Notes under the pieces: model-generated
The model's database searches: none
The model's input: only the letters and a program-made list of their open reading frames with translations
Told to the model about the DNA's origin: nothing
Made by a program: the position numbers and the translations under genes
Part shown: in pieces, positions 2,754-21,182 of the stretch
Layout of the letters: every line of letters starts with the position of its first letter
How positions within the stretch are numbered: the stretch's first letter is position 1
NCBI RefSeq assembly: GCF_000025925.1
Contig: NC_014033.1
Location: forward strand, 1,200,001-1,232,000
Origin: Xylanibacter ruminicola 23
GTDB lineage: Bacteria; Bacteroidota; Bacteroidia; Bacteroidales; Bacteroidaceae
Direction: 5' to 3'
Length of the DNA: 32,000 bases

Positions 2754-5700
2754 ATGAAAAAAGAACTGAAAAAGGTGCTGGTTCTCGGATCAGGTGCCCT
2801 GAAAATCGGACAAGCAGGAGAGTTTGACTATTCAGGCTCTCAGGCCCTAAAGGCACTTCGCGAGGAAGGTATCAAGAGTGTACTCGTAAACCCTAACATC
2901 GCAACCATCCAGACCAGCGAGGGTATTGCAGACAAGGTGTATTTCCAACCGGTAAATACACACTTCGTAACTGAGATTATCAAGAAGGAGCGCCCCGACG
3001 GCATCCTCTTGGCATTTGGTGGACAGACCGCGCTTAACTGCGGTACTGAGCTTTACTTGAACGGAACTCTGAAAGAGTATGGTGTTGAGGTACTTGGTAC
3101 AAGTGTAGAAGCCATTATGAACACCGAAGACCGCGACCTGTTTGTAAAGAAACTGGGCGAGGTTGATCTGAAGGTTCCTGTAAGCCACGCTGTAGAGTCG
3201 ATGGAAGATGCCCTGAAGGCAGCTCACGAGATTGGATTCCCCATCATGATCCGTTCGGCTTATGCACTGGGTGGTCTGGGTTCAGGTATCTGTCCCGATG
3301 AGAAGAAGTTCATTGAGTTGGCCGAGTCGGCCTTTACTTTCGCTCCACAGATTCTGGTTGAAGAGAGTCTGAAGGGCTGGAAAGAAATCGAGTTTGAGTG
3401 CATCCGCGATGCTAACGACCGTTGCTTTACCGTTGCCTCGATGGAGAATTTCGACCCACTGGGTATCCATACTGGCGAATCCATCGTAGTTGCGCCTACT
3501 TGCTCGCTGCGCGAGGAGCAGGTTAAAATGCTGCAGGAAATCACTATTAAGTGTGTAAAGCACCTGGGCATTGTAGGTGAGTGCAATATTCAGTTCGCAT
3601 TCAACGCTGAGACCAACGACTACCGTATCATCGAAATCAACGCGCGCTTGAGCCGTTCTTCGGCTTTGGCATCTAAGGCTACTGGCTATCCCCTCGCCTT
3701 CGTTGCTGCCAAGATTGCACTTGGATATACACTCGATCAAATCGGCGAAATGGGCACTACATCAAGTGCTTATGTAGCACCAAGTCTCGACTATATGATC
3801 TGTAAGATTCCTCGTTGGGACCTGACAAAGTTTGCTGGTGTGAGCCGTCAGATTGGTTCGTCGATGAAATCGGTTGGTGAGATTATGAGTATCGGTCGCA
3901 GCTTCGAGGAGATGATTCAGAAGGGCTTGCGTATGATTGGTCAGGGCATGCACGGTTTCGTGGGCAACGACCACACCAAGTTTGATAACCTCGACGAGGA
4001 GTTGGCTAACCCAACCGACCTGCGTATCTTTGCTATCGCTCAGGCTCTCGAAGAGGGCTACACCATCGAGCGTATCGAGCAGCTTACCAAGATTGACGTT
4101 TGGTTCCTGGAGCGCCTGAAGCATATTGTCGACCTGAAGCACGAGCTGTTGAAGTACAATCAGCTTGAGGAACTGCCCGATGAGCTGCTGCTGGAGGTAA
4201 AACGTTGCGGTTTCAGCGATTTCCAGATTGCCCGCTTCGTGCTCAAGCCACAGGGTGGAAATATGGAGAAGGAGAATCTGGCTGTTCGCAAGTATCGTAA
4301 GCAGCGTGGCGTAGTGCCATCGGTTAAGCGCATCCCAACAGTTGCCTCTGAGCATCCTGAGCTTACCAACTACCTCTACTTCACCTACACCCATGTTCCA
4401 GCATTCGGAAATCCCGAGGGTGAGAAATATGTAGCTGCACACGACATTAATTATTATAATAATGAGAAATCGGTGGTAGTACTCGGTTCGGGTGCTTACC
4501 GTATCGGTTCGTCGGTTGAGTTCGACTGGTGTTCGGTTAACGCCATCAACACCGCTCGCAAGCTGGGTTACAAATCTATCATGATTAACTACAACCCTGA
4601 GACCGTTTCGACCGACTACGACATGTGCGACCGCTTGTATTTCGACGAACTTTCGTTGGAGCGCGTGCTCGATGTGATCGATCTCGAGTCGCCACGTGGT
4701 GTCATCGTTTCAGTAGGTGGTCAGATACCTAATAACCTGGCAATGAAATTGCATAGACAGGGAGTTCCCGTGCTTGGAACCTCGCCTGTTGACATCGACC
4801 GCGCTGAGAACCGCGACAAGTTCTCGGCCATGCTCGACAAGCTTGGAATCGATCAGCCAGCATGGCAGGCACTCACCAGTTTCGACGATGTGAAGGATTT
4901 TGTGGCCAAGGTGGGTTACCCCGTTCTGGTTCGTCCTTCGTACGTTCTTTCGGGTGCCGCCATGAACGTTTGTTACGACGAAGCAGAGCTGCTACGCTTC
5001 CTGAATATGGCTACCGAGGTATCAAAAGAGTTCCCTGTAGTAGTATCTAAGTTCATGACAGAGACTAAGGAGATAGAATTCGACGCTGTAGCCGACAAGG
5101 GCGAGGTAATCGAGTACGCTATCTCTGAACATGTGGAGTATGCAGGTGTTCACTCGGGCGACGCCACGATGGTTTTCCCCGCTCAGAACATCTATTTCTC
5201 TACCATCCGTCAGATAAAGAAAATTGCACACAAGATTGCAGCCGAATTGAACATCTCTGGACCGTTCAACATACAGTTCCTCGCCAAGAACCGCGAGGTT
5301 AAGGTTATTGAGTGTAACCTGCGTGCCAGCCGTTCATTCCCATTTGTGTCAAAGATTTTAAAACGTAATTTTATCGAAACAGCTACCAAAATCATGCTCG
5401 ACGCACCTTATCAGAAGCCTGACAAGAGTGAGTTCGACATCGACCGCATTGGTGTGAAGGCCAGTCAGTTCTCGTTTGCCCGTTTGCAGAATGCCGACCC
5501 AGTTCTGGGTGTCGACATGAGCTCAACTGGTGAGGTTGGTTGCTTGGGCGACGACCTGAACGAGGCCCTGCTCAACTCGCTCATCGCAACCGGTTACTCT
5601 ATTCCTAAGGATGCCGTTCTGATTTCTTCTGGTGGCGCCAAGGGTAAGGTAAGCTTGCTGGAGCCAGCACAGCAGTTGGCCAAGAAGGGTTACACCATCT

Positions 5701-6038
5701 ACGCCACCGCTGGAACCGCTAAGTTCTTTAACGATAACGGTGTAAAGGCTGTAGCTGTAGCATGGCCCGATGAAGAATGTTCAATGGTCAATGGTCAATG
5801 TTCAATGATTAACGTGATGGATCTTATCAGTCAGCACAAGGTTGGTTTGGTTATCAATGTACCAAAGAATCACACCAGTCGCGAGCTTACCAATGGTTAC
5901 AAGATCCGTCGTGGTGCCATCGATCATAACATTCCTTTGATGACTAACGTGCGTTTAGCCAAGGCATTTATCGAGGCCTTTACCGCTATGAGCATCGATG
6001 ATGTGAAGATCAAATCATGGCAGGAGTATAATAATTGA
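2754..6038 (+). CDS. carB: Carbamoyl-phosphate synthase large subunit
   Basis: 1094 aa. The two homologous ATP-grasp halves are marked by KKVLVLGSGALKIGQAGEFDYSGSQA and KSVVVLGSGAYRIGSSVEFDWCSV. The oligomerisation domain lies between them and an MGS-like C-terminal domain follows. Contains an in-frame heptamer-repeat segment at 5777..5811. Confidence 0.97.
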   Translation: MKKELKKVLVLGSGALKIGQAGEFDYSGSQALKALREEGIKSVLVNPNIATIQTSEGIADKVYFQPVNTHFVTEIIKKERPDGILLAFGGQTALNCGTELYLNGTLKEYGVEVLGTSVEAIMNTEDRDLFVKKLGEVDLKVPVSHAVESMEDALKAAHEIGFPIMIRSAYALGGLGSGICPDEKKFIELAESAFTFAPQILVEESLKGWKEIEFECIRDANDRCFTVASMENFDPLGIHTGESIVVAPTCSLREEQVKMLQEITIKCVKHLGIVGECNIQFAFNAETNDYRIIEINARLSRSSALASKATGYPLAFVAAKIALGYTLDQIGEMGTTSSAYVAPSLDYMICKIPRWDLTKFAGVSRQIGSSMKSVGEIMSIGRSFEEMIQKGLRMIGQGMHGFVGNDHTKFDNLDEELANPTDLRIFAIAQALEEGYTIERIEQLTKIDVWFLERLKHIVDLKHELLKYNQLEELPDELLLEVKRCGFSDFQIARFVLKPQGGNMEKENLAVRKYRKQRGVVPSVKRIPTVASEHPELTNYLYFTYTHVPAFGNPEGEKYVAAHDINYYNNEKSVVVLGSGAYRIGSSVEFDWCSVNAINTARKLGYKSIMINYNPETVSTDYDMCDRLYFDELSLERVLDVIDLESPRGVIVSVGGQIPNNLAMKLHRQGVPVLGTSPVDIDRAENRDKFSAMLDKLGIDQPAWQALTSFDDVKDFVAKVGYPVLVRPSYVLSGAAMNVCYDEAELLRFLNMATEVSKEFPVVVSKFMTETKEIEFDAVADKGEVIEYAISEHVEYAGVHSGDATMVFPAQNIYFSTIRQIKKIAHKIAAELNISGPFNIQFLAKNREVKVIECNLRASRSFPFVSKILKRNFIETATKIMLDAPYQKPDKSEFDIDRIGVKASQFSFARLQNADPVLGVDMSSTGEVGCLGDDLNEALLNSLIATGYSIPKDAVLISSGGAKGKVSLLEPAQQLAKKGYTIYATAGTAKFFNDNGVKAVAVAWPDEECSMVNGQCSMINVMDLISQHKVGLVINVPKNHTSRELTNGYKIRRGAIDHNIPLMTNVRLAKAFIEAFTAMSIDDVKIKSWQEYNN
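5777..5811 (+). repeat. Heptamer array inside carB (ATGTTCA ATGGTCA ATGGTCA ATGTTCA ATGATTA), ATG-orientation on +
   Basis: Five consecutive 7-nt units read directly from the sequence. They are translated in frame as CSMVNGQCSMIN within the C-terminal domain of CarB. Confidence 0.9.
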
Positions 6039-6054
6039 TTGAACATTGACCATT
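6037..6054 (-). repeat. Heptamer array, TGA-orientation on +, overlapping the carB stop codon
   Basis: GATTGAACATTGACCATT. 6038..6054 is the exact reverse complement of AATGGTCAATGTTCAAT found at 6151..6167 and 6165..6181. The carB TGA (6036..6038) is part of it. Confidence 0.85.
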
Positions 6055-6087
6055 CTTGCCTTGCAAGCCAGCAGAGCTGGAGCGGAC

Positions 6088-6098
6088 GATTGACCATT
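6088..6098 (-). repeat. Isolated one-and-a-half heptamer units (GATTGACCATT)
   Basis: Same unit and same orientation as 6037..6054, lying in the spacer between the two arrays. Confidence 0.5.
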
Positions 6099-6130
6099 AT
6101 TGCTGCGCCTTTAGAGACAGTACAATATAA

Positions 6131-6186
6131 ATGGTCAGTGGTCAATGATAAATGGTCAATGTTCAATGGTCAATGTTCAATGATAA
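6131..6186 (+). repeat. Heptamer array of 8 units, ATG-orientation on +, running into the yigZ start codon
   Basis: ATGGTCA GTGGTCA ATGATAA ATGGTCA ATGTTCA ATGGTCA ATGTTCA ATGATAA. The yigZ ATG (6187) is the first three bases of the next in-register unit (ATGATTG). TGA TAA at 6181..6186 is in the yigZ frame immediately before its ATG. Confidence 0.92.
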
Positions 6187-6771
6187 ATGATTGACGAGTA
6201 TAAAACACTAAAAAGCGGAGGTGAGGGATATTACACTGAAAAGCGTAGCAAGTTCCTCGCCTTCGCTCATCATGTAGAAACCCTTGATGAAATCAAGGAA
6301 TTATTAGCCGGATATCGTAAGAAGTACTACGATGCCCGCCATGTTTGCTATGCGTATATGTTAGGTGCCGAACGATTGGAGTTCCGCGCTAACGACGATG
6401 GCGAACCATCGAGCACAGCCGGCAAACCCATTCTGGGACAGATTAACAGCAACGAGTTAACGGATATCCTGATAGTAGTGGTGCGTTATTATGGTGGTGT
6501 GAACTTAGGTACATCGGGTTTGATTGTGGCCTATCGCGAAGCAGCTGCCGATGCCCTAGCCCACTCCGAGTTTGAAACCCGTCAGGTTGAGGAGATTGTG
6601 ACCTACATTTTCGCCTATCCGCTGATGAATGATGTGATGCGAATTGTGAAAGAGATGCAGCCACGTATTGTTTCGCAAACCTATGATAATACCTGCGAAA
6701 TCAAGCTCAGCATTCGTAAATCGGAAGCCGAACAACTACGCAACCGACTCTCTAAGCTGTCATTCGAATAA
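6187..6771 (+). CDS. yigZ: YigZ / IMPACT-family (UPF0029) protein
   Basis: 194 aa. Family-typical KRSKFLAFAHHV, DARHVCYAY and DDGEPSSTAGKPIL motifs. Confidence 0.85.
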   Translation: MIDEYKTLKSGGEGYYTEKRSKFLAFAHHVETLDEIKELLAGYRKKYYDARHVCYAYMLGAERLEFRANDDGEPSSTAGKPILGQINSNELTDILIVVVRYYGGVNLGTSGLIVAYREAAADALAHSEFETRQVEEIVTYIFAYPLMNDVMRIVKEMQPRIVSQTYDNTCEIKLSIRKSEAEQLRNRLSKLSFE

Positions 6772-8533: not shown

Positions 8534-8570
8534 GTTATATATGAAACATTAATGATTAAACATTAAAAGA

Positions 8571-8996
8571 TTAAAGATTGGCCTTGATTTTTTCGATCAT
8601 CTCGGCATATTCGGCGTCGGTAAGATATACCTTGCCTGGGTTCATCTGGAACACGCCGCCGTAATCGGGGCCATCTACATATTTGGGAGCCAGGTGGAAG
8701 TGCAGATGCGACAGCTTGTCGCTATAGGCACCATAATTGATTTTCTCGGGGTTGAATGCTTTCTGCATGGCACTAGTCACCTTGGCCACATCGGCCATAA
8801 AGGCGTTGCGATCTTCGTCGCTCAACTCGTTCAGGTCGTTAACGTGGTCCTTATAGGCCACCAGGCAACGACCGCGATAGGTCTGCTCCTTAAAAAGAAA
8901 AGCTCGCGACACCGACAGTTGAGCAAACTCAATCATCAGGTCGTGAAGCGTCTGATTATTCGTGCAATACAAGCACTGTTTGGGATCACTTTGCAT
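8571..8996 (-). CDS. HIT-family (histidine triad) protein
   Basis: Histidine-triad motif HLHFHLAP. The track ORF starts at a GTG (9032). The first ATG (8996, MQSDPKQCLYC...) is preferred. Confidence 0.85.
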   Translation of the reverse strand: MQSDPKQCLYCTNNQTLHDLMIEFAQLSVSRAFLFKEQTYRGRCLVAYKDHVNDLNELSDEDRNAFMADVAKVTSAMQKAFNPEKINYGAYSDKLSHLHFHLAPKYVDGPDYGGVFQMNPGKVYLTDAEYAEMIEKIKANL

Positions 8997-9075: not shown

Positions 9076-9993
9076 TTACTTGTTTACCTGGAACTTGGTG
9101 TCGCCATCCTTGAAGAATGCGTTGATCTGCTTGGCAGCAGCGATACCAGCATTGATGTTGGCCTCGGCTGTCTGAGCACCCATCTTCTTAGGAGTTGAGA
9201 AGTAGCGACCCTCGAACTTAGCGAACTCATCGTTAGCATCTGGCATGATGTCGGTCACGAACTTCAGGTCCTCACGCTCAGCCATCAGCTTAATCAGCTC
9301 GGGCTCGTTGATAACCTCCTTACGGGCTGTGTTAACAAGCACGCCACCCTTCTTCATCTTGCCAACCAAAGCAGCGTTGATGCTCTGCTTGGTCTCAGGA
9401 GTAGCAGGGATATGGAGTGAAACCACGTCGCAAGTCTCGAACAACTTCTCCTGGCAGCAAACAGCATGCACGCCAGCTGCCTCGATCACTTCTGCAGGGC
9501 AGAAAGCATCGTAAGCATAAACGTCCATACCGAAACCCTTGGCGATGCGAGCCACATTGCGACCTACATTACCGAAAGCCAGGATACCCAGCTTCTTACC
9601 CAGCAGCTCACTGCCGCTCTTACCGTTGTAGAAACCACGAACGGCCATCACGAGCAATCCGAATACCAACTCGGCTACAGCGTTTGAGTTCTGACCTGGG
9701 GTGTTCTCGGCTACTACGTTGTGAGCAGTAGCAGCAGCCAGATCGATGTTGTCGTAACCAGCACCGGCACGAACCACAATCTTCAACTGCTTAGCAGCGT
9801 CGAGTACCTCAGCATCCACCTTATCGCTACGGATAATGAGTGCGTCGGCATCAGCAACGGCTGCCAGGAACTGAGCCTTTTCTGTATATTTCTCGAGCAG
9901 TACCAGCTCATTGCCGGCTGCCTCAATCTCTGCCTTAATACCATTAACAGCAGCTGCTGCAAATGGCTTCTCTGTTGCAACTAATACTTTCAT
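9076..9993 (-). CDS. serA: D-3-phosphoglycerate dehydrogenase (D-isomer 2-hydroxyacid dehydrogenase family)
   Basis: NAD-binding GILAFGNVGRNVARIAKGFG. Operon context with serC. Three in-frame ATGs exist: 10023 and 10002 lie inside or in register with the heptamer array, and 9993 gives MKVLVATEKPF. The start is therefore uncertain by up to 30 nt. Confidence 0.85.
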   Translation of the reverse strand: MKVLVATEKPFAAAAVNGIKAEIEAAGNELVLLEKYTEKAQFLAAVADADALIIRSDKVDAEVLDAAKQLKIVVRAGAGYDNIDLAAATAHNVVAENTPGQNSNAVAELVFGLLVMAVRGFYNGKSGSELLGKKLGILAFGNVGRNVARIAKGFGMDVYAYDAFCPAEVIEAAGVHAVCCQEKLFETCDVVSLHIPATPETKQSINAALVGKMKKGGVLVNTARKEVINEPELIKLMAEREDLKFVTDIMPDANDEFAKFEGRYFSTPKKMGAQTAEANINAGIAAAKQINAFFKDGDTKFQVNK

Positions 9994-10002
9994 TTTACTC
10001 AT

Positions 10003-10030
10003 TGAACATTGAACATTGACCATTGACCAT
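10003..10030 (-). repeat. Heptamer array of 4 units, ATG-orientation on the minus strand, directly upstream of serA
   Basis: The minus strand reads ATGGTCA ATGGTCA ATGTTCA ATGTTCA and then ATGAGTA, whose ATG is position 10002 (MSKMKV...). Confidence 0.9.
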
Positions 10031-10392
10031 TATTTCTCATCGACAGTTTTTGTTGTTTTGATAATTTTGGTCAGGGTTGCTGCGATTTTTCCACAATCAT
10101 TATAAATAGATTCAAATTGCATTTTATCCAGATATTCTGACTCATGGAGCAACTCCAGCCAATATTCAGTTTCGTTTGCCTCCTTTAAAGCAATATTTAA
10201 CTTGTTAATAAAATCCATTCGACTTTGAGCATTAACACTTTCGCGAATGTTGGCTCCAATGCTTGTGCCACTTCTCAGTACTTGCTTTGACAGGACATAT
10301 ACCTGTTTTTCTTCTTTCAGATAATTATATAATCTGATAATTCGAAGAGCAAAAGCTTTACTGTCATTCAGCACCTGATTGTCCGCCTTCAT
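10030..10392 (-). CDS. Four-helix-bundle protein (23S rRNA intervening-sequence protein family)
   Basis: RSGTSIGANIRE and ALKEANETEYWLELL motifs typical of this family. The track start (10401) is a TTG inside the repeat. The first ATG (10392, MKADNQ...) is preferred. Confidence 0.85.
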   Translation of the reverse strand: MKADNQVLNDSKAFALRIIRLYNYLKEEKQVYVLSKQVLRSGTSIGANIRESVNAQSRMDFINKLNIALKEANETEYWLELLHESEYLDKMQFESIYNDCGKIAATLTKIIKTTKTVDEK

Positions 10393-10393
10393 A

Positions 10394-10421
10394 ATGGTCA
10401 ATTGTCAATGCTCAATGGTCA
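10394..10421 (+). repeat. Heptamer array of 4 units, ATG-orientation on + (TGA-orientation for the minus-strand genes), between the serC stop and the four-helix-bundle gene start
   Basis: ATGGTCA ATTGTCA ATGCTCA ATGGTCA. Same unit order as the array at 14935..14962. Inverted relative to 10003..10030. Confidence 0.9.
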
Positions 10422-10426
10422 ATGAC

Positions 10427-11494
10427 TTAATGATTTGCTTCGAATTCCTTCATGCAAGCTACGAGAGCGTTGCAGCCTTCGATGGTCTGGGCGTTGTAGC
10501 AAGATGCACGGAAACCACCAACTGAGCGGTGACCCTTAACACCAACCATACCCTTTGATACTGCGAAGTCGAGGAAGTCCTTCTCCAGCTCCTTGTACTC
10601 GTCGGCCATTACGAAGCAGATGTTCATCAGCGAACGATCCTCAGCCTTAGCTGTACCTACGAACATCTTGTTGCGGTCGATCTCGCCATAAACAATCTCT
10701 GCACGCTGCTGAGCCAGCTTATCCATAGCCTCTACACCACCCTGGGCCTTGATCCAGCGCAGATTCTCGAGAGCGCTGTAGATAGGAACTACAGGAGGAG
10801 TATTGAACATACTGCCCTTATCTACGTGTGTACGGTAGTCGAGCATGGTTGGGATCTCACGTGGAGCCTTACCCAGAGCGTCGTCCTTAACAATCACGAT
10901 AGTAACACCTGCCATAGCCAGGTTCTTCTGAGCACCAGCGTAGATGGCATCGTACTTAGCAACGTCAACAGGACGGCTGAAGATATCTGATGACATATCG
11001 GCAATCAGACGAACGGGAACGTCGAGGTCCTTACGGATCTCAGTACCATAGATAGTATTATTTGTTGTGATGTGCAGATAGTCAGCATCAGCGGGAACAG
11101 TCCAATCCTTAGGGATGAAGGTATAGTTGGCATCAGCTGAAGAAGCCACCTCTACTACCTCACCGAAAAGCTTTGCTTCCTTCATAGCCTTCTTAGCCCA
11201 AACACCGGTGTTCAGGTAAGCAGCCTTCTTAATCAGGAAGTTATAAGGAATCATACAGAACTCCAGACTGGCACCACCACCAAGGAAAATCACGGAGTAA
11301 CCCTCGGGAACGTTAAGGAGTTCCTTTACGAGAGCTACAGCCTCGTCAACTACAGGCTGAAAGTCCTTTGCACGATGGCTGATCTCCATCAGAGAGAGAC
11401 CTGAGCCGTTGAAATCAAGACACTGCTGTGCGGTCTTCTCAATCACCTCGCGAGGAAGCATCGAGGGACCGGCGTTAAAGTTGTACTTCTTCAT
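10427..11494 (-). CDS. serC: Phosphoserine aminotransferase
   Basis: 355 aa. SerC-type N-terminus [14 protein letters not shown] and PLP-lysine region [14 protein letters not shown]. Confidence 0.95.
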
Positions 11495-11693: not shown

Positions 11694-11701
11694 CAAAGAT
11701 A
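11694..11701 (-). promoter_or_regulatory. Candidate -7 box TATCTTTG for serC
   Basis: Plus-strand CAAAGATA reads TATCTTTG on the minus strand. It lies about 200 nt upstream of ATG 11494, so a long leader is implied. Confidence 0.35.
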
Positions 11702-11812: not shown

Positions 11813-12205
11813 ATGATACAGAAAGAACATCATATTATTATCAGTCTGGCTTCGAATATCAATCACGAGGCCAACTTAGAGGCTGCCCGCACCCAGCTCA
11901 CCCAGCTGCTCAGCGAGGTACATTTCACCTCCGCCATCTACACCGAACCCGTAGGAAATGGTCAATGGTCAATGGTCAATGGTCAATGGCCCAAATATCT
12001 TAATCAGTTGTGCAAAGGCACCACTGCCTTGGGTATGAACCTGCTGAACGAGGTGCTGAAGGAGATTGAGAAACGTCTGGGTCGCACGCATAACGAGGAT
12101 GGTATTGTAACCGTCGACCTTGATTTGCTGGAGTACGATGGCGAGCGTTTTCACCATCGCGACTGGGAACGAAACTACGTAAAGGACTTAATTAACGAAT
12201 TATGA
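11813..12205 (+). CDS. folK: 2-amino-4-hydroxy-6-hydroxymethyldihydropteridine diphosphokinase-like protein
   Basis: 130 aa. HPPK-like pattern: IIISLASNI (hhhxLGSN), SAIYTEPVG...YLNQ (S-x-YxTxPxG...FLN), EIEKRLGR and VDLDLL. Interrupted by an in-frame heptamer array. Shorter than typical HPPK, so confidence is moderate. Confidence 0.6.
   Translation: MIQKEHHIIISLASNINHEANLEAARTQLTQLLSEVHFTSAIYTEPVGNGQWSMVNGQWPKYLNQLCKGTTALGMNLLNEVLKEIEKRLGRTHNEDGIVTVDLDLLEYDGERFHHRDWERNYVKDLINEL
11958..11989 (+). repeat. Perfect heptamer array (4 x ATGGTCA plus ATGG) inside the folK-like gene
   Basis: Read directly from the sequence. Translated in frame as NGQWSMVNGQW, between the conserved TEPVG and YLNQ segments. 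Confidence 0.92.
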
Positions 12206-14241: not shown

Positions 14242-14949
14242 TTATTTATCAGATAGTTTATCTACGTATTTCATCTCGCGCATAATCCTTCCTTGGCGCT
14301 TGTACATATAGCCCGAAGGATTCTTGCTCGAGAATTTACGTGGATTAGGCAGTGTAGCTGCAATCAGGGCGCATTGGGCCTTTGTTAGCTCCGATGCATC
14401 GGTATTAAAGTGCTCTTCGGCAACGGCCTGTGCACCATAGATACCATCCCCCATCTCAATCGAGTTCAGATACACCTCCATAATTCTCTCTTTACTCCAC
14501 ATCAGTTCGATGAGTGCTGTAAAATACACCTCGAACCCTTTACGCACCCACGAGCGTCCAGGCCAAAGGAACACATTCTTAGCCGTTTGCTGCGAGATGG
14601 TAGATGCACCCAGCTTACGTTTCTCTGGGTGCTTGCTGTTACGTTTGGCAGCCTTCTCAATAGCCTGGAAGTCGAAACCGTGATGCTGCAGGAATTTAGC
14701 ATCCTCGCTCGCCATCACCGCCATAGGCAACGATGGTGATATCTTGTCCAGCGATACCCAGTGGTGTTTCAGCTTCAGGTCCTTACCCTCGCTAATCTGC
14801 TGCGAACAGCGTATAAACATCAGAGGTGTAAAGTAAACCGGCAAGAAACGTAGTGCCATAACAGCAAGAATAGTGGAGGCAAAAAATACCACCACTATCC
14901 ATTTTATTATGCTCTTAAATACTTTCAATTGAAAATGGTCAATTGTCAA
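14242..14949 (-). CDS. mtgA: Monofunctional peptidoglycan glycosyltransferase
   Basis: GT51 motifs [14 protein letters not shown] and [12 protein letters not shown], with an N-terminal TM helix. There is no ATG before the TM segment. The only candidate starts are TTG 14949 (inside the heptamer array) and TTG 14928 ([10 protein letters not shown]...). Confidence 0.88.
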
Positions 14950-14962
14950 TGTTCAATGTTCA
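14935..14962 (+). repeat. Heptamer array of 4 units, ATG-orientation on + (TGA-orientation for the minus-strand genes), between the OmpA-family gene stop and mtgA
   Basis: ATGGTCA ATTGTCA ATGTTCA ATGTTCA. The stop of the upstream gene (14964..14966) abuts it. Confidence 0.9.
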
Positions 14963-14963
14963 A

Positions 14964-15644
14964 TTATTTAGAAGCTTCAGCATTAGCATCCTTAATCATC
15001 TGCTCCGAAGCGTACATGTAAACCTCAACGCGACGGTTCTGCTTGCGGCCCTCGGCTGTGCTGTTGTCAGCAACTGGGTTGGTAGAACCCTGACCGTCAA
15101 CCGACTTAATCTGTGAAGCAGGAACACCCAGCGACTTCAGATAGTTAGATACGCTCTTAGCTCGGTTAACCGACAAAGGATTGTTGATAGCATCGCTACC
15201 AGTATTGTCGGTGTGACCGTAGATAGCAACGTCGCAAGCGCTGTTGTTCTTCAGTACGGTAGCAAACTGCTGCAGTGAGCTCTTTGACGAGGCATTCAGG
15301 TCAGCCTTGTTAGTAGCAAACAGAATACCCGAATCAAATGTAACCTTAACAGCCTCAAGTCCGTTAGCGTCGGTGATAGTCTCAACCTGAGCGTTCTTAA
15401 CGGCCTCAGCCTCCTTCTTAGCCTTGTCCATCTTCTTACCGATGATTGCACCAGTACCAGCACCTACAGCACCACCGATAGCGGCACCAACAGCTGTGTT
15501 ACCAGCAATCTTGCCAATAATAGCACCCAGGGCAGCACCGCCACCAGCACCAATCATTGTACCCTTAGCTGTGTTACTCATGTTACATCCAGCCAGCACC
15601 ATCGAAGCGCACAGTGCTACGGCAATTGATTTCATACTTTTCAT
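14964..15644 (-). CDS. OmpA-family lipoprotein with glycine-zipper region
   Basis: Start moved to ATG 15644 (MKSMKSIAVALCASMVLAGC, lipobox LAGC) because the promoter box at 15692..15699 lies inside the longer track ORF. Glycine zipper GAGGGAALGAIIGKIAGNTAVGAAIGGAVGAGTGAIIG. OmpA-like C-terminus IYGHTDNTGSDAINNPLSVNRA...NRRVEVY. Confidence 0.85.
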   Translation of the reverse strand: MKSMKSIAVALCASMVLAGCNMSNTAKGTMIGAGGGAALGAIIGKIAGNTAVGAAIGGAVGAGTGAIIGKKMDKAKKEAEAVKNAQVETITDANGLEAVKVTFDSGILFATNKADLNASSKSSLQQFATVLKNNSACDVAIYGHTDNTGSDAINNPLSVNRAKSVSNYLKSLGVPASQIKSVDGQGSTNPVADNSTAEGRKQNRRVEVYMYASEQMIKDANAEASK

Positions 15645-20325: not shown

Positions 20326-20886
20326 TTAATCTTTCCAGTACTTTCTTCCAAGCCACTCTTCAAGATAGCCTACGCGGATACTCCATTCACCTTTATTTGT
20401 GATGTCGATCTTATACTTCTTAAGAATCTCATTGAACTTGTTGAGTACGGTGCGACGCCACTTAATGAAGTTCTCGTCGTTTTTCTCTTCATTAGGATTA
20501 ATCGGCGTCTGGTTATATGCCTTAACGCACTCTCGGGCACATTTCACATAGTCCTCGTTAAACTGGTGACCTATAAAGCCATACAGCATGTCAATCATAT
20601 ACGCCTCTTCGCATTCCAAAACTCCAAGCACTCTATTACCTTTCTGGTAGTGATTCCATGCTTTGGTAAGCCCTTTATACAGCTCGCCCAGATAAGTCAA
20701 GCAGTCTTCTACACTTGAATCCCGACTAATAGTAACGGTTGGCACACACTGGGCAAGATGGTCCTGCATAGGTAGCCAGTCGTAGTCTATAGCCTTGTCC
20801 ACTTGATTGTTTTTTACAGCCTCCAGCATCATACATGTGCTGCGGAGGTTCATCTCCATTGCTTTAATTGCTTCACTTAAATACAT
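20326..20886 (-). CDS. Hypothetical protein (186 aa)
   Basis: ATG start. Same strand and spacing as the neighbouring genes. No recognisable motif. Confidence 0.55.
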   Translation of the reverse strand: MYLSEAIKAMEMNLRSTCMMLEAVKNNQVDKAIDYDWLPMQDHLAQCVPTVTISRDSSVEDCLTYLGELYKGLTKAWNHYQKGNRVLGVLECEEAYMIDMLYGFIGHQFNEDYVKCARECVKAYNQTPINPNEEKNDENFIKWRRTVLNKFNEILKKYKIDITNKGEWSIRVGYLEEWLGRKYWKD

Positions 20887-20900
20887 AACTTTTTTAATCT

Positions 20901-21182
20901 TTAATGTTTAATCTTTTGGATTTCGTTCGCAATCACGTCCATGTACACCTGTCCGTTGTGTTCGTGGGTTCTGAAGCTCATGCTACAGGCAACCAGCTCG
21001 CCCTCAGTCCACTCGATGGTGGCCAAACTGCCCAGGGCTGTTACCACAAAGCTGTCCTCATACTTGCCACCCAACATCTGCAGTACCAGTGTACGCTTGT
21101 CAAGTACGCCATTCTCACTTTTCTCACTCTGTACGGTAGTCATCACACCGCACTTTTTCACTCTTAAAATCATTGTGTTCAT
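20901..21182 (-). CDS. Hypothetical small protein (93 aa), possibly an OB-fold/DUF3127-like DNA-binding protein
   Basis: ATG start. The size and beta-rich pattern (VLQMLGGKYEDSFVVTALG...VACSMSFRTHEHNGQVYMDVIANEI) recall DUF3127. This is recollection only. Confidence 0.45.
   Translation of the reverse strand: MNTMILRVKKCGVMTTVQSEKSENGVLDKRTLVLQMLGGKYEDSFVVTALGSLATIEWTEGELVACSMSFRTHEHNGQVYMDVIANEIQKIKH

Follow-up and report, generated by a model that had tools for sequence, protein, structure and literature searches.

Intervening sequences (IVSs) within 23S rRNA genes have been known since 1990. We know of no established function or origin for either the IVS or the S23p protein family (PF05635), and the heptamer repeats of several phyla are, to our knowledge, equally unexplained. 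Here, we describe what is probably an IVS-type gene cassette in a 32-kb stretch of the genome of Xylanibacter ruminicola 23 (contig NC_014033.1, positions 1,200,001 to 1,232,000), which was analysed as a whole and is called the window; all positions below are those of the window. The cassette carries the gene of a 120-aa four-helix-bundle (4HB) protein of the S23p family between inverted arrays of heptamer repeats, with serC and serA as its neighbours on the minus strand. The interesting part is the generalisation of this layout, found here outside rRNA, to the whole protein family.

The IVS of Coxiella burnetii is 428-444 nt long, resides in helix 45 of the 23S rRNA and encodes S23p (PMC4990558). 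Its ends pair over 28 bp in a terminal stem, at which RNase III cuts in vitro, and its 5' end holds two or three tandem GACAGAT heptamers, variable between strains, with the RNase III site located at the first repeat (PMC4990558). Older suggestions quoted for the IVS are that it is a remnant of transposition, or a mobile element whose open reading frame (ORF) is needed for mobility (PMC4990558). The cassette of the window shares with the S23p IVSs of Coxiella, Leptospira and Brucella the protein family, the size (428-444 nt there and about 430-437 nt here), a terminal inverted-repeat stem (28 bp there and ~40 bp predicted here), strain-variable tandem heptamers at the 5' end, a gene that is co-oriented with the host transcript and would lack its own promoter, and a sporadic distribution that has been attributed to horizontal transfer (PMC4990558). 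On the other hand, the ORF of Coxiella is in decay and seems to go untranslated while the ORF here is under strong purifying selection, and excision by RNase III has been demonstrated for the Coxiella IVS while it would be expected by analogy here (PMC4990558). The host site also differs, being the junction of two protein-coding genes rather than an rRNA helix. There is no Rfam match to rRNA in the window, and the cassette stands between serC and serA, not in helix 25 or 45 of the 23S rRNA.

Tandem heptamer repeats of cyanobacteria, the short tandemly repeated repetitive (STRR) sequences, were reportedly described by Mazel in 1990, and Elhai et al. are said to have described in 2008 (Genome Res 18:1484) small dispersed repeats or inserts nested in cyanobacterial heptamer repeats. 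The TAACTGA repeats of Beggiatoaceae are found just upstream of start codons and have been proposed to be translational elements in a report that makes no mention of a helix-bundle or IVS protein (MacGregor 2015, PMC4679880). The arrays described here resemble the heptamers of cyanobacteria, Beggiatoaceae and Bacteroidetes in their period of 7, in their location before starts or after stops and sometimes in frame inside ORFs, in their variability between strains, in their patchy distribution across the same phyla, and in the 21-30-nt mobile inserts embedded in them. Unlike the present analysis, the reports examined draw no link between those repeats and PF05635 genes or inverted pairs. In a literature search, PF05635 genes in general were not found linked to inverted heptamer arrays, and the Coxiella paper is the sole mention of heptamers in an IVS; the search was incomplete, and an earlier description is possible.

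A gene between inverted short repeats, together with many gene-less hairpin copies of the repeat dispersed in intergenic DNA of the same genome, is also characteristic of the REPIN/RAYT systems (PMC3116915). However, the chemistry of RAYT, an HUH transposase, is known, and the repetitive extragenic palindromes (REPs) are fixed palindromes (PMC3116915). No catalytic motif is known in the 4HB protein, and the repeats here are tandem heptamers of free sequence. The 4HB protein also has a homologous pentameric four-helix-bundle fold in common with Avd of the diversity-generating retroelements, as seen from the relationship between the structures 2GSC and 4DWL (PMC10053308). The setting is unlike that of Avd, with no reverse transcriptase among the neighbours within 6 kb according to their Pfam lists and no template/variable repeat pair near the 4HB gene.

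In the window, serC (phosphoserine transaminase; 10427..11494, minus strand; NF003764, E 2.6e-141) is the upstream host gene, and its TAA at 10427-10429 abuts the cassette. The 5' arm (10391..10430, minus strand) is a CATTGAC-type heptamer array with period 7 and 4.6 copies at 10393-10424 according to TRF, its full extent being that of the inverted repeat. It reads GTCATTGAC CATTGAG CATTGAC AATTGAC CATT and ends in CCATTAT, which contains the 4HB start codon. The 4HB gene (10030..10392, minus strand), identified by matches to the hidden Markov models of PF05635/TIGR02436, runs from the ATG at 10392 to the TAA at 10030-10032. The 3' arm (9994..10033, minus strand) overlaps this stop codon and is the reverse complement of the 5' arm, a GTCAATG/TTCAATG array with period 7, 4.6 copies and 96% matches at 10000-10031 (TRF). 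Its letters are TGGTCAA-TGGTCAA-TGTTCAA-TGTTCAA-TG, and the serA ATG at 9993 follows nine bases further on. In the repeat search, the two arms (9994-10033 and 10391-10430) are 40 nt each and 88% complementary, with 357 nt between them. The order of serC, array, 120-aa 4HB gene, inverted array and serA had been called in the original prediction, and every coordinate is borne out, accurate to the base.

The downstream host gene encodes a serA-type phosphoglycerate dehydrogenase (9076..9993, minus strand; TIGR01327, E 2.7e-57). Its true start is most likely the ATG at 9993; the in-frame ATGs at 10002 and 10023 fall inside the array, and strains in which the site is empty begin serA at the same ATGAAAGTATTA. 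Aligned to such strains, the whole cassette is an indel of 429 alignment columns (9997..10426, minus strand). The heptamer motif TCAATGNTCAATG has 23 matches in the window compared with 0.28 expected from shuffles. Stop triplets are found in frames 0, 1 and 2 of the 5' arm, and ATG is found in all three frames of the 3' arm.

The junction has been compared in ten loci of rumen Prevotella, of the Xylanibacter ruminicola group, whose SerC protein is identical to that of the window and which are 89-100% identical to the window over 13 kb. The gene and its inverted arrays are present in the window and in L004, L005, L009 and L010. The junction is empty in L001 and L006 (TAA-TAGAAAAACAAT-ATG) and in L002 (TAA-TTAAGGTAAA-ATG), where 10-12 nt without any array separate the two genes. 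A third allele, in L003, L007 and L008, has a (CATTAAA)4 array alone, with a unit unlike that of the window. The cassette is a presence/absence polymorphism within one species, and it splits a serC–serA pair that is otherwise contiguous, as had been proposed. SerC and SerA are intact in filled and empty strains alike, which agrees with the further proposal that translation of both neighbours is preserved. A comparison of filled with empty junctions reveals no clear direct duplication of the target site. Within the 8.5-kb syntenic core of these loci, nearly all of the remaining sizeable indels are heptamer arrays too. The possibility that the heptamer unit was copied from the target, as serC ends in CATTAA, close to CATTGAC, was considered and rejected because the same unit flanks unrelated sites of the genome.

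The cassette and its surroundings have different histories. In L011 and L017, serC is 86.0% and serA 85.9% identical but identity reaches 99.5% over the 425-nt cassette. Only 3 differences are found within the cassette, while its surroundings have 5-13 per 50 nt. On the right-hand side the break coincides with the array end, and the arms are identical, with divergence starting just beyond them. The opposite pattern is observed between the window and L010, in which serC is 99.4%, serA 98.3% and the cassette 83.3% identical. Here the differences are all inside the block, and the dS of the cassette is 1.66, which means that synonymous divergence is saturated. The two patterns together cannot result from vertical descent; the cassette has been imported or replaced independently of its surroundings. 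On these alignments, the cassette is horizontally exchanged as a discrete unit, and its limits are the arrays.

The allele P0016 (93% aa identity) is always found between serC and serA, in genomes with differing outer neighbours, and 4HB ORFs that are 75-79% identical in nucleotide sequence are found at non-homologous sites in different phyla. The arms vary in concert, with CATTGAC on both sides in most alleles and CATTGAA on both sides in L022 and L023. With regard to the classical criteria for transposons and miniature inverted-repeat transposable elements, inverted termini are present, close copies occupy one site, and distant relatives occupy unrelated sites.

As a check, the original prediction proposed to ask genome-wide whether other 4HB genes have the same kind of flanks; homologous loci in other genomes, well beyond Prevotella, mostly do. 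A profile scan with a 10-sequence alignment, taking one genome per species and mostly metagenome-assembled genomes, gave 80 loci in Prevotella and other Bacteroidota, Clostridia, Planctomycetota, Myxococcota, Cyanobacteria, Verrucomicrobiota, Spirochaetota, Acidobacteriota, Lentisphaerota and Proteobacteria. The ORF boundaries in this survey were set by a simple rule, and 75 loci were quantified. In the 70 nt on each side of the ORF, tandem heptamers are seen nearly everywhere, and the array after the ORF repeats the one before it in reverse complement. The unit varies by locus (GAATTAC, CAATTGA, GCACAAT, TTTGAGG, AGATTAC, AAATGCA and GTGTAAA are examples). When an array is defined by a period of 7 and a length of at least 21 nt within 100 nt of the ORF, 55 of the 75 loci have one upstream, 60 have one downstream and 48 have one on each side. 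Hardly any array has a period of 5, 6, 8, 9 or 10. Arrays cover 25.8% of the flanks compared with 0.6% of the overall background and 2.8% of other intergenic DNA of the same loci. In most of the apparently unbracketed exceptions, the partner array sits further out.

The two arms of a locus also match each other better than they match the arms of other loci, with a median local score of 20.5 for a locus's own arms vs 7.5 between loci and duplex energies of -53.8 vs -37.4 kcal/mol (Wilcoxon p = 3e-10). The arrays are built from 45 different canonical units, whose GC content averages 26%, and their median length is 32 nt. Judged from these flanks, the bracket is common to the whole family: its period is exactly 7, its unit is free, its arms are complementary, the enclosed gene runs in the sense of the host operon, and no gap is left beyond the array.

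Individual loci illustrate the range of this architecture, which is also present in the annotated genomes of isolates (Nostoc, Bernardetia and Treponema). On plasmid pNPUN01 of Nostoc punctiforme, GTCGGAG and CTCCGAC arrays surround the 4HB gene, and in Bernardetia (L102, 1310-1410) 17 perfect GATTAGT units stand beside it. A recurrent layout has an A-array, an insert of 30-60 nt, a B-array, the gene and a second B-array. On plasmid pTS1 of Treponema saccharophilum (L104, 1-860), ~290 nt of GAAAGTG/GAAAGAT are followed by an inverted CTCTCCG array, the gene and CTCTCCG. In L028 (2750-4600), two divergent 4HB paralogues are located 800 nt apart on either side of rfbC, and each has its own unit (GGTTATC/GATAACC vs CAATTGA/TCAATTA). 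The rfbC gene of this locus itself holds an in-frame GATAACC-type array, and the 3' end of the second cassette, array included, recurs in tandem copies every ~62 nt.

The orientation of the arrays, with TGA after serC and ATG before serA, had been part of the original description, and its two halves have fared differently across the family. A stop triplet is found in the sense strand of 46/59 upstream-arm units (78%) compared with 19/55 downstream-arm units (35%), so the tendency to upstream stops is family-wide. At a period of 7, a unit with a stop places stops in every frame of its array. Given this asymmetry of the arms, stops are met in the units when reading inward from either side. ATG, by contrast, is found in 10/55 downstream units and 11/59 upstream units, with no enrichment. 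By this count, the ATG array is a lineage-specific peculiarity of the CATTGAC unit and not a design principle.

The position of the cassettes relative to their neighbours bears on how they may be expressed. Both neighbours are co-directional with the 4HB gene in 53 of 68 loci and both are opposed in 2, and the median distance from the upstream stop to the 4HB ATG is ~45 nt, which is essentially the length of an array. In the window, the sole match to TAnnTTTG, the Bacteroidota-type -7 promoter motif, between 9950 and 11750 is located upstream of serC (11694..11701, minus strand). This is a consensus match from a regular-expression scan, and it is in keeping with a transcript shared by serC, the 4HB gene and serA. 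A sigma-70 promoter and terminator scan of the cassette gave nothing meaningful; that consensus is unsuited to Bacteroidota. Three Acutalibacteraceae species have a 4HB cassette ~40 nt upstream of ssrA, the gene of transfer-messenger RNA (tmRNA; L044 4402-4749, L047 4392-4740, L049 4405-4753), and one Oscillospiraceae locus has it ~40 nt upstream of tRNA-Leu (L079 4358-4440). Residence beside the genes of processed stable RNAs is reminiscent of the rRNA IVS. Taken together, the shared direction, the array-sized gap, the upstream promoter motif and the tmRNA and tRNA sites suggest a cassette built for read-through from host promoters.

The arms had also been expected to pair in RNA, and folding agrees with this expectation. 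In the predicted fold, a terminal stem of ~40 bp is present in both the minimum-free-energy and the centroid structures, and the minimum free energy is -129 compared with -92 +/- 5 kcal/mol for shuffles (z = -6.95). At the gathering threshold, Rfam returns one tRNA only in the whole window, and the arms have no match.

The 4HB protein of the window matches TIGR02436 with 115.8 bits (cut-off 24, E 1e-33) and PF05635 with 104.9 bits (cut-off 33.8, E 3e-30). It also matches PDB entry 2RLD (E 2.3e-39), which has five chains, and by profile PDB entry 2GSC (XCC0516; E 2.4e-4). On the strength of these matches, the protein is homologous to solved pentameric four-helix-bundle structures. Its dN/dS ratios are 0.04-0.12, and 12 columns are invariant in an alignment of 39 diverse homologues with 44-93% identity; the protein is under strong purifying selection. 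The S23p/PF05635 family comprises >10,000 clusters at 50% identity. The 120-aa protein has >8000 close homologues (E <= 1e-5), most of them on contigs <2 kb, which suggests that the cassette or its arrays routinely break metagenome assemblies. Among the PADLOC defence models, only PDC-S02 was hit (E 0.0045), which is non-significant and without a passing stretch. With regard to carriage by phages, two weak fecal-phage matches were found, and the one inspected (L103) has no arrays.

On the whole, the feature is probably an IVS-type selfish gene cassette, inserted co-directionally in the serC–serA operon directly after the serC stop. The cassette would have no promoter of its own and would be transcribed together with serC and serA. 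Its arms would pair in the transcript to form a stem of ~40 bp that may be a substrate of RNase III, by analogy with the 23S rRNA IVSs of Coxiella and Leptospira. Once cut, the transcript would yield a free 4HB message and separate messages for serC and serA, which would make the insertion cheap for the host. Movement, replacement or entry most likely occurs by recombination in or at the repeat arms, loss may occur by slippage across the palindrome, and the arms would double as landing pads for a 30-nt mini-insert described below.

Heptamer arrays are found in the window beyond the serC–serA junction. The neighbours of the 4HB gene within 6 kb are carB, yigZ, TSCPD, DUF1015, HIT, serA, serC, folK, an M64 peptidase gene, a SpoU methylase gene, mtgA and an OmpA-family gene. 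A gene-less inverted pair of CATTGA-type arrays occupies the carB–yigZ spacer (6037..6191, plus strand; repeat search and TRF), with a CATTGA-orientation array after the carB stop, a loop of ~31 nt and a TCAATG-orientation array that runs into the yigZ ATG at 6187. This spacer is just 20-23 nt long in L001, L002, L006, L007 and L010. The inner end of its left arm (GACCATTAT) is identical to those of the 4HB cassette and of L125. CATTGAC-type arrays are also found in frame inside carB (5776..5807, plus strand; …ECSMVNGQCSM…), in some strains only, and inside folK (11954..11989, plus strand; …GNGQWSMVNGQW…), where they are absent from L001, L002, L006 and L010. Among the conspecific strains, the length of CarB is 1094 or 1086 aa and that of FolK is 123, 124, 130 or 140 aa. 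Another CATTGA-orientation array (14931..14966, minus strand) separates mtgA from the stop of the OmpA-family gene, which it follows directly; in other strains this junction has an unrelated AT-rich spacer or overlapping genes, and no array.

The space between the HIT-family and DUF1015 genes (8538-8579, minus strand) is taken up by heptamers of another family, CATTAAA/GATTAAA (read as TTTAATG on the opposite strand), which is also found at 20891-20916, ahead of an ORF ending at 20886. CATTAAA is the unit of the array-only serC–serA allele of L003, L007 and L008. In L007 (9863-11458), an eptA-like sulfatase gene replaces the TSCPD gene between DUF1015 and yigZ, a difference unrelated to the arrays.

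The mini-insert is a 30-nt sequence with two hairpins, CTTGCCTTGCAAGCCAGCAGAGCTGGAGCG, found in the carB–yigZ spacer at 6055-6084 (plus strand) within a CATTGAC unit (CATT^GAC), and it is missing from this spacer in L003 and L008. Three strains have a 30-nt insert in the folK array: L003 carries the identical 30-mer, in frame (5495-5524), and L007 and L008 have a variant with compensated hairpins (5488-5520). In metagenomes, 53 exact copies are present in 51 contigs (L105-L155) and in >20 contexts. Nearly all of them are inside arrays of differing units (CATTGAC, GACAGTT, GAGAGTT), at ..TT^GA... As far as these copies can tell, the heptamer arrays are real insertion targets, and the mini-insert looks like a Bacteroidota counterpart of the small dispersed repeats of cyanobacteria. 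Gene-less inverted array pairs are common, and a tblastn search for 4HB remnants in such hairpins found none; it found one extra full copy, in L028.

Several observations weigh against an IVS-type selfish cassette. Arrays without a 4HB gene far outnumber cassettes, at about one per 4 kb in rumen contigs; near array-selected sites no 4HB gene was found in 287 kb, which is uninformative given the low density of the gene. About a fifth of the loci have the layout with an A-array, a short insert and two B-arrays rather than a simple bracket, and a few loci, such as the phage match L103, have no arrays at all. Among the arm mismatches, 50 are G:U-compatible and 46 are A:C. As there is no excess of G:U, there is no sign of pairing selected in the sense RNA, and the symmetry of the arms may arise at the DNA level; the arguments for arm pairing and RNase III cleavage come from folding and the rRNA precedent. 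The comparison of filled and empty junctions does not tell gain from loss in the window's species. Finally, all members of the lineage with >80% identity sit at serC–serA. The alleles of this lineage show that the cassette is exchanged or replaced, and lost, at a single site, and no transposition to a new site is seen among them. The suggestion of a mobile or recombining cassette therefore stands with regard to discrete exchange with breaks at the arrays and falls short with regard to movement between sites.

Some of this evidence would also fit arrays and hairpins that are an autonomous, self-expanding simple-sequence element like STRR, with a 4HB gene that landed in an array hairpin or was captured by it, so that the arrays would not be part of what moves. 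Many junctions do have arrays but no gene, arrays are found even in frame in carB, folK and rfbC, the common gene-less inverted pairs hold no detectable 4HB remnants, and the identical mini-insert in arrays of several units at >20 sites indicates that arrays act as targets. The A-B-gene-B layouts resemble insertion into one arm, and the arm mismatches have no RNA-specific bias. We nevertheless consider this explanation unlikely. Between species the arrays travel with the gene, as in L011 and L017, in which the arms are identical and divergence begins just outside; the empty serC–serA alleles have no arrays, and the array-only allele has a different unit. It also leaves unexplained why one protein family is the recurrent occupant in about ten phyla and why each of two paralogues separated by 800 nt has a unit of its own. 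A very improbable alternative is that the feature is a device of translational coupling or insulation, selected by the host and not mobile, which supplies stops in all frames after serC and starts before serA. The three-frame stops and ATGs of the window's arms, the excess of stop triplets in upstream units (46/59 vs 19/55) and the proposed translational role of TAACTGA heptamers near start codons in Beggiatoaceae (PMC4679880) are in line with it. However, ATG is not enriched downstream (10/55 vs 11/59), many units have neither stop nor ATG, strains with an array-less spacer of 10-12 nt encode the same SerC, and horizontal exchange of the block is left unexplained. Hardly any weight is given to a purely vertical history, in which the 4HB gene would be an old resident of the serC–serA operon in rumen Prevotella and the empty junctions simple deletions. 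Replication slippage is well known to delete palindrome-flanked DNA precisely, and every relative above 80% identity is at serC–serA, in several species with differing outer neighbours. Yet vertical descent cannot give a cassette that is 99.5% identical between flanks of 86% identity, or one of 83% identity between flanks of 99%, and the 75-79% nucleotide identity of 4HB ORFs at non-homologous sites across phyla also stands against it.

A bolder reading may also be considered, although we find it rather doubtful. The 4HB gene and the heptamer arrays could together be an unrecognised class of autonomous mini-element, in which the pentamer would act on or bind the 7-nt repeats, in DNA or RNA form, and help them to spread, expand or persist. 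The far more numerous gene-less hairpins, the single arrays, in-frame ones included, and the array-targeting 30-nt mini-inserts would then be non-autonomous derivatives, as REPINs are to RAYTs. If true, this would explain together the origin of the rRNA IVS, the function of PF05635 and the heptamers of cyanobacteria, Bacteroidota and Beggiatoaceae.

The findings have practical consequences as well. Arrays and cassettes make in-frame insertions in housekeeping proteins and shift the calling of gene starts, with serA called at 305 or 315 aa, and they probably fragment metagenome assemblies, given the short contigs on which most close homologues are found. The filled, empty, array-only and swapped alleles are a natural experiment within one culturable rumen species, and they make the purpose of the protein, the processing of the arms and the mode of movement of the unit testable. 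For the family as a whole, the 23S rRNA IVS would be the rRNA-resident case of a wider cassette architecture that is found in ordinary operons, near tRNA and tmRNA genes, and on plasmids.

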